From a virus (Duplodnaviria; Caudoviricetes), in the IMG/VR virus record IMGVR_UViG_3300013121_000026, positions 1-64,000 of that record: a DNA stretch of 64,000 nucleotides. The stretch is one strand, 5' to 3'. Position 1 is the first letter of the stretch. The number at the start of each line of letters is the position of its first letter. The notes below the pieces were generated by a model, which ran no database searches, was not told the DNA's origin, and saw only the letters and a list, made by a program, of their open reading frames with translations. This document shows positions 30,659-63,740 of the stretch, piece after piece. The translations under genes and the position numbers were made by a program.

Positions 30659-31045
30659 ATGGGCCTTGATATGTACTTGATGACGCGAGCGAAGAACAAG
30701 TATGCTGTGGAAAACAGCGAGCTCAATTACAACGAAATTGGCTATTGGCGGAAAGCCAATGCGATTCACAAGTGGTTTGTTGACAATGTTCAGCAAGGCA
30801 AGGACGAATGCCAAGTGAGCAATGTCAGTCGAGATCAACTGCAAAAGCTCTTGGAAGTTGTTAATACCGTGCTTAATAATCAAAGCAAAGCAACGGAATT
30901 GCTTCCGCCGCAGAAAGGCTTTTTCTTCGGATCTCAGGAAATCGATGAATGGTATTTCAAAGATCTCAAGGATACCAAAGTATTTGTTGAAAATGCCCTG
31001 AAATTGGATGAGAACTGGGATATCTTTTATCAATCCAGTTGGTAA
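30659..31045 (+). CDS. Conserved phage protein (MGLDMY...YWRKAN...GFFFGS...YQSSW)
   Basis: Recognisable widespread phage family; RBS AGGAG. Confidence 0.8.
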   Translation: MGLDMYLMTRAKNKYAVENSELNYNEIGYWRKANAIHKWFVDNVQQGKDECQVSNVSRDQLQKLLEVVNTVLNNQSKATELLPPQKGFFFGSQEIDEWYFKDLKDTKVFVENALKLDENWDIFYQSSW

Positions 31046-31053
31046 ACTGCAAC

Positions 31054-31084
31054 AAAAGTCCCGCTTTAATTGGCGGGACTTTTT
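31054..31084 (+). terminator. Intrinsic terminator
   Basis: AAAAGTCCCGC-loop-GCGGGACTTTT. Confidence 0.8.
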
Positions 31085-31523
31085 ACCAAAAATATTTTCA
31101 TAGAAACACAAAAATAACATTTGACTTTCCATAAATAGCATTGTATAAAAGTTAAAGTTAAATAAAACGCAAGGAAAAAGTTTTGCATCTACAGGAATAC
31201 ACAAAAATTCATTGTTCGGATCAATGGTATCCGATGCCTGTATTTGCGCGTAATACAAGCTCATAGGCTTGGGTTTTAGGACCCTCGCCTAGTAAAGGTT
31301 GAGGGTGGTTAAGTTAAATTTCCCTCAACATAGTATGTGATTTTGGTGACTAGCTGATCTGGCCCACGAAGGACATCCAGCAGCAGCCCACACGGGAAAG
31401 CGGCTTAACTGTACGCCACGTGACAATCATATATTAAAAAAGAATTAGAGTTCCCTAGTACCTGGGGAAAGAAGTTGGTCCGCTGGCCTTTACTTTTAGG
31501 CGAACACAGGTACACTAATTTAT

Positions 31524-31559
31524 TCCTAGGTAGCTCAATTGGTAGAGCCCTCGGCTGTT
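31524..31559 (+). pseudogene. tRNA-Asn 5' half, ending at the GTT anticodon
   Basis: TCCTAGG acceptor strand, D arm, CTCGG-CT-GTT; partner half at 32184. Confidence 0.8.
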
Positions 31560-31590
31560 GAATACACAGTTTTACGATTCACAAATGCAA

Positions 31591-31664
31591 TGCCTAGTAG
31601 TTCAACTGGTAGAACGCACGCCTGTTAAGCGTTGAGGTTGTAGGGTCGGAGCCTACCTAGGCAG
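31591..31664 (+). tRNA. tRNA-Asn(GTT), nested inside the split tRNA-Asn
   Basis: TGCCTAG/CTAGGCA, loop CTGTTAA, G73; no encoded CCA. Confidence 0.85.
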
Positions 31665-32069
31665 CATTTGCTCAAAATCATCTACTAGTAAAACTAATTC
31701 TTGATAACTTATTGACGAACTAGTTTTCTTTTTATTAGCAAGTGTCCTAAATAAAGATTCTTTTTGTTTTGTCCTAGATTCTTTAGATCTCAGTTTATTA
31801 TTAAAACTTGCATTACAAGATCTACTACAAAATTTAATAGAATATCCATCATAAGATAATATTTTATTACATTTTAAACAATAATTTGGATTAGCATAAT
31901 AATCATTTAAATTTTTACATTTCTTTTTTACTTCGAATGTGCTGGTTGCTTCACAAAAATACTTAGTAATGGGCTTTTGAATTTTAGTACTATGTGCTCT
32001 TTGATGACCGGATAAAGAATATTTTGAATTAAACTCTCTATTACATAGATGACATTTAAACTTGTTCAT
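31653..32069 (-). pseudogene. Zinc-finger protein, probably a truncated homing endonuclease
   Basis: C2H2 finger and CxxC..FCSRSC motif, no nuclease domain; RBS GGAG; minus-strand TATAAATA at 32157-32164. Confidence 0.6.
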
Positions 32070-32183
32070 GTATTACTCCATAAATAGTAGGTGGGACAGC
32101 TCGGTTGACTCCATAACTGAGTTGTTGATTACTGAAATTAATCAACTAACCACATTTATTTATAAATTAATCCATTTTAGCGT

Positions 32184-32221
32184 CCGAGTGGTTGGGGGAT
32201 CGTGGCCCTCTCTAGGAGCCA
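32184..32221 (+). pseudogene. tRNA-Asn 3' half with CCA
   Basis: CCGAG anticodon strand, T arm, TCTAGGA-G-CCA complementary to the 31524 half. Confidence 0.8.
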
Positions 32222-32414
32222 TTTCGAGAGCGAGTTAGGTGTGGAAAGGGAATTGTTTTGGAATCGCCATCGTGCGCGCCGCCATTAGTGTATGGTCATA
32301 GATCAATGACAACACGTGGCGGATACAAACTTAATTTCCTTCCAACCTGCTAACTCGGTAGCCTTTTAAAAAAGGAGCAACTAACACGAGGCGTCAGAAC
32401 ACGCCTACTCGAAA
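32222..32414 (+). ncRNA. Candidate structured ncRNA (long rod plus two hairpins)
   Basis: Closing TTTCGAG/CTCGAAA; CGAGTTAG/CTAACTCG rod; GC-rich and non-coding. Confidence 0.5.
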
Positions 32415-32568
32415 ATAGGTATCTAGCGGGTGACTGTTCATCGAACCGTAATTTTACAAAAATAATGAACTCAATTTTTGTATTCTAGATACCTATTCTA
32501 AATTAAAGCTGGCCCATTTCATGACGCAATGTATTTGGGTGTGAATTAGACCAGCTTTATTAATTTAA

Positions 32569-32645
32569 CCTCCGTTCGCCTGGTGGTAAGGGTACGGGAT
32601 TTTCACTCCCGGACATCGTGGATTCGACTTCCATACGGAGGACCA
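32569..32645 (+). tRNA. tRNA-Glu(TTC)
   Basis: CCTCCGT/ACGGAGG, CGGGA-TTTTCAC-TCCCG, CCA. Confidence 0.85.
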
Positions 32646-32985
32646 GATACTAGTTGACATCAACAAAAACTAGTGTATATTGCAGATGAGAGTTAGCTAC
32701 TAGGAGTGCTTAGAACGTCTAGTCAGAATGCTAATACTCTGAGGCCAAACTGTGATGTCTCATATTTTAGGTACGTAAGTATAGAAGTGACTGGTACAAC
32801 TTAGCTACCTTTGGCCAAAGGTCGAAATGCTAAGATGGGAGCAAGACGTGATGCTCGTTAGAATGCGGTTGGTTACCCTAAATAACCCATGTTAGACACG
32901 GTTATCTAACTTAGATTGCATTAGGCGAGGGTGCAATTGAATTCCAAGCTAAACAATTCGTTTAGTTAGCTCGCCTCGTTTTTAG

Positions 32986-33060
32986 GCACTATTAAGCATC
33001 TAGTGAGGCTGCTCGTCTGTCTAACGAGTGAGAGGGTGGCGGTAACCCTATAGTGCGCCA
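32986..33060 (+). tRNA. tRNA-Asp(GTC)
   Basis: GCACTAT/ATAGTGC, CTCGT-CTGTCTA-ACGAG, GCCA; atypical T loop. Confidence 0.8.
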
Positions 33061-33921: not shown

Positions 33922-34008
33922 GCTAGAGTCCCATAGTGGTCGAGTGGACTGGTTTTGTAATCCAGTAGGGTAACCTCAACGTGAGTTCGAATCTCACCTC
34001 TAGCTCCA
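33922..34008 (+). tRNA. tRNA-Thr(TGT) with long variable arm
   Basis: GCTAGAG/CTCTAGC, loop TTTGTAA, variable AGG-GTAA-CCT, CCA. Confidence 0.85.
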
Positions 34009-38177: not shown

Positions 38178-38263
38178 TCGAGGATGCGCTAACGGTAGGC
38201 AAGCGGACTTTGAATCCGTGCTAGCTCAAAAGAGCTATGAAGGTTCGATTCCTTCTCCTCGAT
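38178..38263 (+). tRNA. tRNA-Gln(TTG) with long variable arm
   Basis: TCGAGGA/TCCTCGA, loop CTTTGAA, TAGCTC-AAAA-GAGCTA extra arm. Confidence 0.8.
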
Positions 38264-38346
38264 CTCAAACATCCAGAAAACAAAAAAATTAAAAAAACAG
38301 ACACTATACAAATAGGGTTTGTTAGAAGTAGAATTAAAAAGAATAT

Positions 38347-38654: not shown

Positions 38655-38774
38655 AGGCTATCTACAGCAACTAATTTGGGTCTTGTATACCCGTGGTCGT
38701 TGGTTCGAAGCCAACCTAGGTTATTTGTTAACCTAGTAGCTCAGTTTGGTAGAGCACGTAAAATGTATAGCCTG
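38655..38774 (+). ncRNA. Stem-NTNCNGCA RNA unit B enclosing a circularly permuted tRNA-Thr(TGT); Y RNA/YrlA-like
   Basis: AGGCTAT/ATAGCCT-G; order anticodon arm, T arm, loop-closed acceptor stem, D arm. Confidence 0.8.
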
Positions 38775-39937: not shown

Positions 39938-39972
39938 GGCTCCGTAGCTCAGCAGGACAGAGCAACAGCCTT
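39938..39972 (+). pseudogene. tRNA-Arg 5' half, broken in the anticodon loop
   Basis: GGCTCCG, D arm with A20, ACAGC-CTT; partner half at 40849-40885. Confidence 0.75.
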
Positions 39973-40011
39973 AAGAAGAACACCTCAGAAAATAAGTTTA
40001 ACAGAATAAAT

Positions 40012-40094
40012 GCGGTTGTAGCCGAGGAGAGTTTCTACCTCTTTAAACGTAACTGGAGCTGAAAATGCGGGTTCGAATCCTGCCAACCGCGCCA
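40012..40094 (+). tRNA. Aberrant tRNA-Arg(TCT)-like gene lacking a normal D arm, nested in the split tRNA-Arg
   Basis: GCGGTTG/CAACCGC-G-CCA, AGAG-TTTCTAC-CTCT, canonical T arm. Confidence 0.55.
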
Positions 40095-40233
40095 TCAAAA
40101 AGTATCTATATTTAAATAGTAAAATTTCTGCAATCTTCCTTGGAGGAAATAATTTGTAAATTAATGAGTCCAACGACAATGTCTAATTTTTCTTTTTGTT
40201 GTTTTTGAGGTTTATAATAAACTTCATTAAAAA

Positions 40234-40735
40234 CATGCTTATCCGGTTAACACATACAATTCCCTGTGCTAGTTTTTGGTCATCGGGCAATACCGCCATT
40301 TCATGGAGGCTTTCATGGCTCACGTAACGATCGAAACCGACTCCAATGGCAACGTTGTTCTGGTCGAACCCAAGCGCCGCGCCGGATTGGACCAACGTGT
40401 ATTTCGTCAGATTGGCGTTCACTATGAGTGGGCTCATTTGAACGACTGGCGCGAACACGGTGGCCGCGCTCGTTTTTACGGTTGGGCTTCTAAGGAACTT
40501 CCCGCCACCATGACATCGCAGGAGGCGTAAATGAACGACGTTGAAGAATGCCGCCGCTGCAACGGGTCTGGCGAAATTGCGATAAGCACGCGAGACGGTC
40601 ATTTTATTGCTCCGGGACCGGTTCCAGACGACGCTACCGGGTTTGCCGTCGCAACCTGCGATGAATGCCGTGGAATGTGCTACGTTGAAGACGGATCAAC
40701 CTTTGGAGGATGTATGTTCAAACCGGATAAGCATG
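40234..40735. mobile_element. Non-autonomous IS1595-family-like cassette with two passenger ORFs
   Basis: 15-bp TIR CATGCTTATCCGGTT, 8-bp direct repeat ATTAAAAA (40226-40233, 40736-40743), GC-rich interior, no transposase. Confidence 0.8.
40315..40530 (+). CDS. Passenger hypothetical protein
   Basis: RBS GGAGG before MAHV; GC-rich. Confidence 0.55.
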   Translation: MAHVTIETDSNGNVVLVEPKRRAGLDQRVFRQIGVHYEWAHLNDWREHGGRARFYGWASKELPATMTSQEA

Positions 40736-40740
40736 ATTAA
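40531..40740 (+). CDS. Passenger zinc-finger protein with DnaJ-type CxxCxGxG motifs
   Basis: CRRCNGSG and CDECRG; RBS AGGAGG. Confidence 0.6.
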   Translation: MNDVEECRRCNGSGEIAISTRDGHFIAPGPVPDDATGFAVATCDECRGMCYVEDGSTFGGCMFKPDKHD

Positions 40741-40848
40741 AAAGACTATAAATATTCATGTGGGACTCCTTTGGTTTTATGCATTTAGTTCTACAGACCA
40801 TGGGTATTTGTACTACCGCGATGGTCACTACTATTTATAAAAACTGGA

Positions 40849-40885
40849 GCTGAAAATGCGGGTTCGAATCCAGCCGGAGTCACCA
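40849..40885 (+). pseudogene. tRNA-Arg 3' half with CCA
   Basis: GCTG, T arm, CGGAGTC-A-CCA complementary to GGCTCCG. Confidence 0.75.
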
Positions 40886-42319: not shown

Positions 42320-42405
42320 GGAGGGTAGCACTCAATGGTGGGTAACTGGTCTTGAAAACCAGGCTGACCGAAAGGTCAAGGGTTCGATTCCTTTGCCCTC
42401 CTCCA
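42320..42405 (+). tRNA. tRNA-Ser(TGA)
   Basis: GGAGGGT/GCCCTCC, loop CTTGAAA, variable arm GACC-GAAA-GGTC. Confidence 0.9.
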
Positions 42406-43853: not shown

Positions 43854-43943
43854 GGACCCATAGTTTAAAGGTAAAACACCAGTTTTATAAACTGTACTCC
43901 GGATTAGAGGGTAATATAGGTTCGAGTCCTATTGGGTCTACCA
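43854..43943 (+). tRNA. tRNA-Ile(TAT) with extended variable region
   Basis: GGACCCA/TGGGTCT-A-CCA, CAGT-TTTATAA-ACTG. Confidence 0.75.
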
Positions 43944-45844: not shown

Positions 45845-47221
45845 ATGAACGCATTTGTTACCGCAGCTCAATCACATGAAGCTCGCACAGAAAATAATAT
45901 GAAAGCATTGAACGCCACAGGCAACGCTTGTGTCGATCTTTTCTTCGCAATTGGTTCCTCGCGGAAAACCGACATTATTCCGCGATTTGTCGCCGCATAT
46001 GTTGAAAATCCTCAGGTGGCCATTCGTGTTGCCTTGTGGGCTCGCGATGCTCGGGGTGGCGCTGGTGAACGCAAGGTTTTCCGCGACATCTTGAACTATC
46101 TGTCTATTAACAATAGTGAATACACAGATCGAATTCTTAATCGAGTGCCTGAACTCGGCCGCTATGACGACTTGTTCTATGCGCCGAACCACAAGGGAAC
46201 CGCATTTGAAATTATTAAGAACGCGCTGGAAGATCCTACAAAGAAGGGTCTCGCTGCAAAGTGGATTGACCGCAAGGGAAACAATGCAGTTGCTCTTCGT
46301 AACTTTCTTGGACTTTCACCCAAGGCATATCGCAAGATGTTGGTAAATGCTACCAATGTTGTCGAGACGCCTATGTGCGCTCGTGAATGGGGAGCTATTA
46401 ATTACAATCATGTTCCTTCTGTTGCTTCTGCACGCTATCAGAAGGCATTCAATAAGCATGACGCCGCACGCTACTCAGTCTGGAGAAACGGTCTAAAGAG
46501 TGGTGAAACTAAGGTTAATGCGTCTGTTCTTTATCCTTATGAAGTTCTTCGTTCAATCCGCAGTGGTGATAAGGACGTAGCTTTGGCACAGTGGGAAGCA
46601 TTGCCTGACTATATGGGTAGTCAAAACATTCTTCCTGTGGTTGACGTGTCTGGATCAATGACGTGCCCAGCATCTGGATCAATCACTTGCTTGGATGTTG
46701 CTTTGTCACTTGGTTTGTACCTTGCTGATAAGAACAAGGGTGAATTTAAGGACACGTTCGTTACATTCAGTGGTCATCCTGAGTTGCTACATTTGAAGGG
46801 CACTTTGCTTCAGAAAATGGATCAAATGAATAATTCTGATTGGATGATGAACACTAATCTACATGCAGTATTTTCGCTAATCCTTAAGACTGCATTAGAT
46901 GCAAAGGTTCCTCAGGGCGACATGCCTAACACGATCCTGATTCTTAGTGATATGCAATTCGATTCATGTGTTGATCATGATGACAGTGCAATTCAAATGA
47001 TTAATAGAAAGTACACAGAAGCAGGTTACGAAATGCCTAAAGTTGTATTTTGGAATTTGAATGCAGGCTATAAAAACGTTCCTGTTAAGTTTGATGCTAA
47101 GGGTACTGCTTTGATTAGTGGATTCTCTCCGGCGATCATGAAGAGTGTTCTTGCTGCAGAAAACATGAGTCCGGAAGGAATTATGCATCTGACGATTGAC
47201 AACAACCGATACGACTTTTAA
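45845..47221 (+). CDS. DUF2828-type TROVE-like helical domain plus vWA protein (Ro60-related)
   Basis: RDARGGAGER, GRYDD, AAKW, MIDAS DVSGSM, ILSDMQFD, VFWNL, SGFSP. Confidence 0.85.
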   Translation: MNAFVTAAQSHEARTENNMKALNATGNACVDLFFAIGSSRKTDIIPRFVAAYVENPQVAIRVALWARDARGGAGERKVFRDILNYLSINNSEYTDRILNRVPELGRYDDLFYAPNHKGTAFEIIKNALEDPTKKGLAAKWIDRKGNNAVALRNFLGLSPKAYRKMLVNATNVVETPMCAREWGAINYNHVPSVASARYQKAFNKHDAARYSVWRNGLKSGETKVNASVLYPYEVLRSIRSGDKDVALAQWEALPDYMGSQNILPVVDVSGSMTCPASGSITCLDVALSLGLYLADKNKGEFKDTFVTFSGHPELLHLKGTLLQKMDQMNNSDWMMNTNLHAVFSLILKTALDAKVPQGDMPNTILILSDMQFDSCVDHDDSAIQMINRKYTEAGYEMPKVVFWNLNAGYKNVPVKFDAKGTALISGFSPAIMKSVLAAENMSPEGIMHLTIDNNRYDF

Positions 47222-63011: not shown

Positions 63012-63370
63012 TGGAACTGTTTAACATTCTAATCGCTGCTTATTTGCTTTGGATTCCAATTGCTATCTACAAAACAATGGTGGATTATTACAAAGTCTAT
63101 CAATTTGTCGAAGATAGCAAAGACGAGTTCCCGTATTTGTCTGCGGATATTTTTCGCGAGATCGAAAACTCGTCTATGATTTACTATTTTTTCAGAACAG
63201 TAACATTTTCCAGAAGTGCGTCACATTTTATCGAACCAATCAACATGATTATTAATAAAAAGTACAGTGTGGATGCATTAAGAAAAGATATTAAAATTAG
63301 CAAGGAAATTTTGGCTAAAATTGAAAAAGCACTCCAAACCAAACCAGTTGACAATAACGACGAAAAATAG
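63011..63370 (+). CDS. Hypothetical membrane protein
   Basis: N-terminal TM. Confidence 0.5.
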   Translation: MELFNILIAAYLLWIPIAIYKTMVDYYKVYQFVEDSKDEFPYLSADIFREIENSSMIYYFFRTVTFSRSASHFIEPINMIINKKYSVDALRKDIKISKEILAKIEKALQTKPVDNNDEK

Positions 63371-63456
63371 TATAAATATAACGTTATGTTCAGTACTGTG
63401 GGAAGTACAGGCCGACAACGCTAGGACAAGGTTCGAATCCAAAACATAACAATTGA

Positions 63457-63740
63457 TATTCAGAGACGATTTACAGTAGGTATTTCGGACGTGGGGGCGG
63501 TTCCCACCACCTCCACCAAGAGTAGATCTAAGCAGGAAACTGCTAACAAAACTGACCATGGAACGGTTGATCTACTCTTGATGGGGGGGTGATATAGGAT
63601 CGACGAGTATTGAGAGTAAATTTGAGAATATCTCGGTGGTTGAGCAACCAGATTATAAATGGCAACGACAACGTTGACTATGCACTAGCAGCTTAAGCTA
63701 GGCGGGGTTAGTTGGGTTCCTAGCAACAGAATACCCAACG
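63457..63740 (+). ncRNA. ssrA: Circularly permuted (two-piece) tmRNA; tag (A)GNDNVDYALAA
   Basis: 3' piece CACCTCC-A-CCA (ends 63518) precedes the 5' end GGGGGTG (63585) with G3-U70; paired intervening segment; tag ORF 63661-63696; outer ends approximate. Confidence 0.9.

Follow-up and report, generated by a model that had tools for sequence, protein, structure and literature searches.

The split tRNA-Asn gene and its contents

We analyzed an asparagine transfer RNA gene (tRNA-Asn) that is interrupted at its anticodon loop and lies in the first 64 kb of IMGVR_UViG_3300013121_000026, a metagenome-assembled IMG/VR virus record of 160,761 bp with direct terminal repeats; this stretch of 64,000 nucleotides (nt) is referred to as the window. 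The phage is T4-like, encoding a gp43-type DNA polymerase, a DnaB-like helicase, and a primase, and its genome has a guanine plus cytosine (GC) content of approximately 36%. An array of about 26 tRNA genes, every one of them on the plus strand, extends over 26-45 kb, and the CCA end is encoded in 19 of the 23 tRNAs of the window. When introns were allowed, ARAGORN called a tRNA-Asn(gtt) at 31524..32221 whose anticodon loop is interrupted by a 622-nt insert (31561-32182). An earlier note on this DNA had described here a tRNA-Asn whose halves still pair, an intact second tRNA-Asn(GTT) nested between them, and a minus-strand zinc-finger open reading frame (ORF) ending within the nested tRNA, and all three were recovered in our analysis with the following coordinates and evidence:

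31524..31559, plus strand: 5′ half of the outer tRNA-Asn(GTT), positions 1-36 (ARAGORN with introns allowed; aligns to eight intact homologs)
31560..31590, plus strand: left end of the insert, a 31-nt spacer or leader before the nested tRNA, 30% GC (sequence, composition)
31591..31665, plus strand: nested, intact, divergent tRNA-Asn(GTT) without an encoded CCA (ARAGORN; Rfam tRNA model, 49.4 bits)
31653..32069, minus strand: ORF of 138 amino acids, putative remnant of a homing endonuclease of a C2H2 zinc-finger plus probable HNH family (ORF list, phmmer, alignment, BLASTP, tblastn)
32070..32183, minus strand: region upstream of the remnant ORF and right end of the insert (sequence; motif enrichment)
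32184..32221, plus strand: 3′ half of the outer tRNA-Asn(GTT), positions 39-76 (ARAGORN with introns allowed; alignment)

The 5′ half contains the 5′ strand of the acceptor stem, the D arm, the 5′ strand of the anticodon stem (CTCGG), and the loop bases CT-GTT, while the 3′ half contributes the other strand of the anticodon stem (CCGAG), the variable loop, the T arm (GGGGG-ATCGTGG-CCCTC), the 3′ strand of the acceptor stem, G73, and an encoded CCA. Brought together, they form a 7-bp acceptor stem with one G-U pair, a 4-bp D stem, a 5-bp anticodon stem, and a 5-bp T stem, with every stem paired and the GTT anticodon intact.

Homologs place both halves in one gene

Calls of this kind are rare by chance, as the intron-mode search returned two in the real window versus 0.07 per 64 kb in 30 block-shuffled copies. 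Pairing alone, however, is not rare, since a fitting stem partner was found in 109 of 1000 shuffles of 3 kb. Because stem complementarity is this common by chance, we searched for homologs of the outer gene and took homology as the decisive evidence. The T arm of the 3′ half is unusual, and a 21-nt word taken from it recurs in 29 loci of metagenome contigs and in seven IMG/VR loci, many of which are uninterrupted 76-nt tRNA-Asn(GTT) genes in phage tRNA arrays. When aligned to eight such intact genes from other phage contigs, the window halves correspond to positions 1-36 and 39-76, and in one homolog (L087) the anticodon stem is identical to that of the window (CTCGG/CCGAG). Homology to the intact family ends after 31559. 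By this alignment both halves derive from one gene, which is a member of a phage tRNA-Asn family that is widespread and has an unusual ATCGTGG T loop, and the possibility raised in the earlier note that they come from unrelated genes can be set aside.

The anticodon loop itself is incomplete. It reads YTGTTAA or YTGTTAC in all eight intact homologs, whereas in the window G-A-A-T-A-C... comes after GTT and the sequence ...A-G-C-G-T directly precedes CCGAG. Loop positions 37-38, which are AA or AC in the homologs, have thus been lost or replaced. Whichever junction is chosen A37 is absent, and bases 37-38 would be G-T, G-A, or missing altogether. The outer gene is probably a pseudogene in two pieces.

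We found no near relative of this genome and no empty or filled allele of the locus in INPHARED, IMG/VR, or the JGI metagenome contigs, where only distant intact homologs of the outer tRNA were present. A pattern representing the empty allele had no match in the JGI metagenome contigs, nor did exact words from the 5′ and 3′ halves in IMG/VR. Megablast of 24 kb against INPHARED revealed no near relative of the phage, and the sole blastn match of the locus was a 54-nt spacer element in Ounavirinae phages, which is described below. Synteny followed from the upstream gene at 30659-31045 led only to distant relatives (31-51% identity), mostly without tRNA arrays.

The nested tRNA and the flanks of the insert

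The nested gene is the sole intact tRNA-Asn of the 160.8-kb genome. It is separated from the 5′ junction by 31 nt and from the 3′ junction by 517 nt and, unlike the outer gene and 19 of the 23 array tRNAs, does not encode its CCA. The part of the insert that is neither tRNA nor ORF amounts to about 144 nt (roughly 31 + 113). Its ends, taken as the first 30 and the last 113 nt, pair no better than shuffled sequence, as 97 of 500 shuffles did as well. An Rfam scan of 31000-33000 on both strands gave no match to Intron_gpI or any other ribozyme at E≤10, and apart from the tRNA model no Rfam family was recognized in the insert.

The ORF runs against its surroundings, being a rare minus-strand gene in a rightward-transcribed region, with a GC content of 26% and a stop codon located 13 nt inside the nested tRNA. 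Its low GC content and its strand, together with the missing CCA of the nested tRNA, are signs of foreign origin. A GGAG Shine-Dalgarno sequence for the ORF is present at 32076-32079 (plus-strand coordinates), and a match to the T4-type late-promoter-like motif TATAAATA occurs on the minus strand at 32157-32164, 88 nt upstream of the ATG. This motif is over-represented in the window, with 15 copies where seven are expected and none of 100 shuffles reaching 15. The late promoter proposed in the earlier note is no more than a consensus match, albeit to a motif that is enriched in the window. No sigma-70-like site was detected in 32070..32183.

The antisense ORF as a deletion derivative of a putative nuclease family

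The N-terminus of the ORF matches zf-C2H2_4 with 23.6 bits, just under the Pfam cut-off of 27. A word-indexed search for relatives returned only the ORF itself, a peptide-pattern scan built from the ORF alone found none, and our first family alignment was too loose to be used as a search query. An exhaustive phmmer search with the ORF yielded 686 proteins at E≤0.001; many of these are eukaryote-like proteins with multiple zinc fingers, and the rest form a coherent set of proteins of 265-330 amino acids, with which the ORF aligns from residue 1 to approximately residue 115. The alignment of this family shows, in order, an N-terminal C2H2 finger, an 'NPxxCxxC...FCSxSCxAxxNNK' module, a middle Cys module, and a C-terminal block (G-L-T-R-D-H-K-V-S-V...Y-D-P-Y-Y-I-x-H-P-x-N-C-E-L-M...N-N-K-K-K-T-x-S-S-I-x-Y-x-E-L-V) in which the D-H, N, and N residues are invariant among the full-length relatives.

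BLASTP against two family members, P0031 and P0007, resolved the ORF into two collinear segments: residues 2-113 match the N-termini of the family and residues 104-133 match its last 30 residues, the latter segment being 63% identical to the end of P0031 (E 2e-8). The ORF consequently retains the first two modules, which are the N-terminal zinc modules, and the last ~30 residues, but neither the middle Cys module nor the invariant R-D-H...N-C...N block is present; in this form it does not class as a site-specific endonuclease. From these alignments we conclude that it is an in-frame deletion derivative that has lost its catalytic core.

Is the full-length family a nuclease? Its members match PHROG 23051, which is of unknown function, and P0007 (E 2e-8) and P0009 (E 5e-7) also match PHROG 1271, annotated as 'HNH endonuclease'. 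Three members (P0003, P0009, and P0022) pass the threshold of zf-C2H2_6, with 27.7-28.6 versus a cut-off of 25. Sequence searches of the family against Pfam, NCBIfam, and the PDB revealed zinc fingers only and no nuclease domain, and a profile search of the PDB gave C2H2 fingers only. Likewise, a fold search with the whole protein was dominated by zinc fingers. The C-terminal domain on its own was modeled with a mean predicted local distance difference test score (pLDDT) of 87.7, and this model matched just 17 PDB chains at Z≥2, of which around 15 are HNH or His-Me nucleases; the HNH-type chains include Gme HNH, BrxU, the HNH domains of Cas9 and IscB, Cap5, SspE, and the HNH protein of phage GVE2. 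The best of these matches is weak (Gme HNH nicking endonuclease, 4h9d, Z 3.9, root-mean-square deviation of 4.7 over 72 residues), and the Foldseek rows are mostly HNH proteins, yet every one has E>1. Overall, we regard the family as a probable divergent HNH nuclease. Its members in GenBank phages are annotated as 'hypothetical protein'.

A tRNA-Asn and a convergent nuclease gene form a module

A profile-guided scan of IMG/VR recovered 36 loci of the family, and in all 36 there are tRNA genes within 3 kb. The family gene is antisense to the tRNAs in 30 of them, and 18 loci have a convergent tRNA that ends no more than 100 nt from the stop codon of that gene, often overlapping it. The convergent partner is tRNA-Met(cat) in nine of these 18 loci, tRNA-Asn(gtt) in four, tRNA-His in two, and another tRNA once each in the remainder. 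As expected of free-standing homing endonucleases, the family is sporadic and tied to one genomic niche, beside its presumed target.

The four closest full-length relatives of the remnant, whose match extends over the full length and includes the zinc finger (L018, L020, L021, and L022), are each placed tail-to-tail with a tRNA-Asn(gtt), at gaps between stop codon and tRNA of −14 to +21 nt; the corresponding value in the window is −13 nt. Since all four relatives share this partner and orientation, the pair of tRNA-Asn and convergent nuclease gene is, as far as the comparison of loci can tell, a conserved module. Three of the four module tRNAs also lack an encoded CCA, as does the nested tRNA of the window. 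In the four relatives the module is free-standing between other tRNA genes and is not nested. The insert of the window corresponds to this module, extended by 31 nt at one end and by 114 nt at the other.

A further candidate locus, L030 (2018-3970, minus strand), would be a tRNA-Phe(aaa) with a 1877-nt insert around a full-length member of the family, but it has two stem mismatches, and we considered it doubtful and did not count it.

Origin of the nested arrangement

The halves of one gene, the association of the ORF family with tRNA arrays, and the tRNA-Asn partner of its closest relatives are best accounted for together if the insert is a mobile module of a tRNA-Asn and a homing endonuclease, which landed imprecisely in the anticodon loop of a resident tRNA-Asn gene and left the outer gene as a pseudogene and the nested tRNA as its replacement. 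We consider this the likely history of the locus. The earlier note had proposed a homing-endonuclease element that supplies a replacement isoacceptor, and the family membership of the remnant and the tail-to-tail tRNA-Asn(GTT) of its closest relatives speak for that proposal, with the caveat that the copy in the window lacks the catalytic core and that cleavage at the anticodon is an inference.

The sequence of events was most likely as follows. By analogy with SegB of T4, the resident tRNA-Asn gene would first have been broken at or close to its anticodon, possibly by the endonuclease of a co-infecting phage. Imprecise repair of this break from a module-carrying donor would then have copied in the tRNA-Asn and the nuclease gene, and in the course of it loop bases 37-38, which are missing from the present sequence, would have been lost. 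We propose that the module would have been joined imprecisely, and not by clean allele replacement, because its flanks would have been non-homologous. The nested tRNA-Asn would from then on have supplied the function, with the outer gene left as a pseudogene in two pieces. A later in-frame deletion, visible in the alignment with the full-length relatives, would have removed the catalytic core of the nuclease and kept the zinc-finger DNA-binding part, the ribosome-binding site, and the late-promoter-like motif.

Several points weigh against this history. The insertion is deduced from the anatomy of the locus and not seen as a polymorphism, as no close relative or allele was found. Both halves are flawless, with their stems paired and the CCA kept, which is unexpected for an old pseudogene and could mean either a recent insertion or selection. 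The assignment of the nuclease fold is based on weak Z scores. Finally, the family elsewhere abuts the 3′ ends of tRNA genes and not their anticodon loops, and its true cut site may perhaps not be the anticodon.

Among the alternatives, illegitimate recombination between two tRNA-Asn paralogs, with no endonuclease cut and the nuclease gene as a passenger, fares best, and we still regard it as unlikely. Kinship between the outer and the nested tRNA-Asn is recognizable in both the 5′ and the 3′ part, these arrays commonly contain orphan tRNA fragments, and the window contains a second nested tRNA (39938-40885) whose insert has no recognizable nuclease gene and which is bordered by repeats of leader and T-arm sequence. 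Nevertheless, there is no repeat at the junctions of the window tRNA-Asn that could drive such an event, the insert is a conserved, self-contained module of at least four other phages, and the break falls within the same few anticodon-loop bases as independent inserts in homologous tRNA-Asn genes.

A large tRNA intron, in which RNase P and a 3′ processing enzyme would excise the nested tRNA and the halves would be trimmed and sealed, for example by an Rnl1-like ligase, appears improbable to us. It would explain why the halves are perfectly preserved and still able to pair, and the genome does encode a T4 Rnl1-type RNA ligase (143295-143876, outside the window; PF09511, 111.8 bits). In its favor are also the precise inserts of 50-51 nt, resembling the top half of a tRNA, found in other phages between T35 and T36 of the same tRNA-Asn family, and the 'enigmatic' introns in tRNA genes of Lak megaphages, among which one may itself encode a tRNA (PMC6784885). 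However, removal of the insert cannot restore the loop found in the eight homologs, processing of the nested tRNA would leave long tails up to the two junctions, the insert ends form no helix, and the genome encodes no RtcB. Splicing or re-ligation is thus unlikely because there is no canonical loop, the insert ends are unpaired, and there is no group I signal, and the same missing A37/A38 and unpaired ends tell against the suggestion in the earlier note that the halves reanneal or are ligated. Comparably improbable is the idea that the outer tRNA-Asn continues to be made, with the insert acting as a giant example of the poorly described, processing-dependent tRNA introns of phages. Once RNase P and a 3′ endonuclease had excised the nested tRNA, the opened precursor would be trimmed and its anticodon loop sealed by the Rnl1-type ligase, such that each transcript would give both the nested tRNA-Asn and an outer one whose loop carries an unusual G37.

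That two strain variants, one with a plain tRNA-Asn and one carrying the module, were joined by the assembler is very improbable. The record is assembled from a metagenome and tRNA arrays are rich in repeats, which makes the question of an assembly error, also posed in the earlier note, a reasonable one; yet exact words at either junction recur in the genome up to a length of just 11-12 nt, well under the k-mers used by assemblers, which argues against a chimera in the assembly graph, and such a chimera would not delete exactly two loop bases and leave the halves in register around a complete module. Least credible of all is that the insert splices itself out as a group I intron whose homing-endonuclease gene is antisense. 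In favor of it, anticodon loops of bacterial tRNAs do host group I introns with nuclease genes (PMC3984707), the last base of the upstream exon is U, and the insert would end in G under one choice of boundary. Against it, the scan of 31000-33000 for ribozymes was negative, the ~31 + 113 nt outside the tRNA and the ORF are too small for a group I core, the same pair of tRNA and nuclease is free-standing in other phages, and the restored loop would be non-canonical.

Other inserts in anticodon loops and a second nested tRNA

Independent inserts were observed at the anticodon of homologous tRNA-Asn genes. Two loci, L062 (3086-3212, minus strand) and L063 (1819-1894), have identical flanks, and L062 carries a precise insert of 51 nt between T35 and T36 of its tRNA-Asn(GTT); with these 51 nt removed it equals L063 exactly. 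A 50-nt insert at the same spot of a tRNA-Asn is present in L086 (2545-2670), which lies on the same contig as L069. Both inserts consist of a G, a 6-bp terminal stem, and a T-arm-like hairpin (CCAG-TTCAAAT-CTGG), and their terminal stems covary (GACGAT/ATCGTC versus CGAGAT/ATCTCG). They look like the top half of a tRNA and like the 'enigmatic' Lak introns. The insert of the window, unlike these, has no acceptor-like terminal helix, and its excision would not leave a canonical 7-nt loop. Just upstream of the split tRNA-Asn of L086 there is a second intact tRNA-Asn (2060-2136) and an ORF with an HNH motif (2156-2554). We considered this ORF as a possible relative of the nuclease family of the window, but hhalign showed no relation, and Pfam assigned it to no named family.

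On L069, which belongs to a 127-kb phage, two more anticodon-loop inserts of 42 nt (207-324) and 27 nt (1000-1104) were found, the latter in a tRNA-Ile(tat), with Rfam scores of 58 bits each. A gapped-pattern scan of IMG/VR for further 50-nt inserts was too unspecific, and there was no tRNA among the extra matches listed.

The second nested tRNA of the window consists of halves at 39938-39975 and 40842-40885 with matching acceptor strands, which enclose an odd tRNA at 40012-40094. A 34-nt direct repeat (40051-40084/40842-40875) is 97% identical between its copies, and a leader repeat is found at 39916-39955/39990-40029. The insert also holds short ORFs and a GC-rich cassette of ~0.5 kb (40226-40743), bounded by inverted repeats (CATGCTTATCCGG...) and by a duplicated ATTAAAAA; the two small plus-strand ORFs of this segment had no family matches. 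After removal of the cassette, a minus-strand frame of the insert encodes 48 amino acids and is not a recognizable nuclease.

Comparison with known systems

Free-standing homing endonucleases in phage tRNA clusters are already known. SegB of T4, encoded in the tRNA cluster, cuts inside tRNA genes, with a preferred site in the tRNA-Asn gene of T2L and mostly 2-nt 3′ overhangs, and is co-inherited with the neighboring tRNA genes at the expense of those of the recipient (PMC2330249), and its homologs are enriched beside tRNAs across phages (PMC13096335). Both SegB and the family described here are selfish nuclease genes of phage tRNA arrays. However, SegB is a GIY-YIG enzyme that recognizes the T arm and the 3′ end and is encoded between tRNA genes on the same strand, whereas our family combines C2H2 fingers with a probable HNH domain and is mostly antisense, and in the window it lies inside an anticodon loop together with its tRNA and as a catalytically dead copy. 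Known HNH-type nuclease ORFs among phage tRNA genes share this setting, but none has been reported to interrupt a tRNA gene or to bring a replacement tRNA.

The Lak megaphage introns (Devoto et al., 2019; PMC6784885) resemble the window insert in being placed in the anticodon region with a tRNA-like gene, and alleles with and without them exist (PMC6784885). They are short, carry no nuclease gene, and are treated as introns, whereas the insert studied here is 0.62 kb long, holds a nuclease remnant, and leaves no canonical loop upon removal. Mobile group I introns with homing endonuclease genes in bacterial tRNAs (reviewed in PMC3984707) share the anticodon-loop target and the nuclease-driven insertion; they self-splice and leave the host gene functional, while in the window there is no ribozyme signal and a spare gene would come to the rescue. 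The persistence of a truncated nuclease gene in a T4-type genome after invasion has a parallel in I-TevIII of T4, a defunct homing endonuclease mobilized in trans by MobE (PMC2790892), although I-TevIII resides in the nrdB group I intron and the remnant of the window, which keeps the DNA-binding zinc modules, in a tRNA gene.

We found no clear published description of a cassette of nuclease and spare tRNA inside the anticodon loop of a tRNA, the nearest being the remark on the Lak phages. The locus resembles a preserved trace of the remodeling of phage tRNA arrays by selfish nucleases, in which an element without self-splicing would destroy its target gene and compensate with a spare copy, unlike the route taken by introns and inteins. 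It also defines an uncharacterized family, with C2H2 fingers and a probable HNH domain, which is linked to phage tRNA genes in every locus examined. Taken together with the 50-nt inserts at the same position, it points to the tRNA-Asn anticodon as a recurrent site of invasion, and it bears on the turnover of phage tRNA sets and on the 'enigmatic' tRNA introns of phages.

Additional features of the tRNA array

The non-coding stretch immediately downstream of the split gene (32222-32568) folds far more strongly than its shuffles (z = −6.6). Its segment 32357-32410 shares 84-86% identity with unannotated spacers that lie among the tRNA genes of Ounavirinae phages of Erwinia and Salmonella, such as phiEa21-4, and one hairpin shows a compensatory change with respect to them. 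Possibly this is a small RNA that is conserved in the tRNA arrays of phages.

Three array tRNAs, tRNA-Thr(tgt) at 33922-34008, tRNA-Gln(ttg) at 38178-38264, and tRNA-Ile(tat) at 43854-43943, measure 87-90 nt, a length suggestive of additional arms in a type of tRNA whose variable loop is normally short. With sequence-only hidden Markov models (HMMs) for orphan tRNA halves, matches resembling orphan 3′ halves were obtained outside the called tRNAs at 42366-42405 and 38687-38717 (E 0.003 and 0.07, respectively); these models are insensitive, as they recovered 102 of 290 known 5′ halves and missed the 3′ half of the outer tRNA-Asn. Toward the end of the window (63344-63740) the phage encodes a permuted two-piece transfer-messenger RNA of the alpha-proteobacterial type with the tag GNDNVDYALAA. 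Directly past the array, at 45845-47221, there is a gene for a 458-amino-acid protein with DUF2828 and DUF7788, which matches PHROG 850 ('RNA-binding protein').

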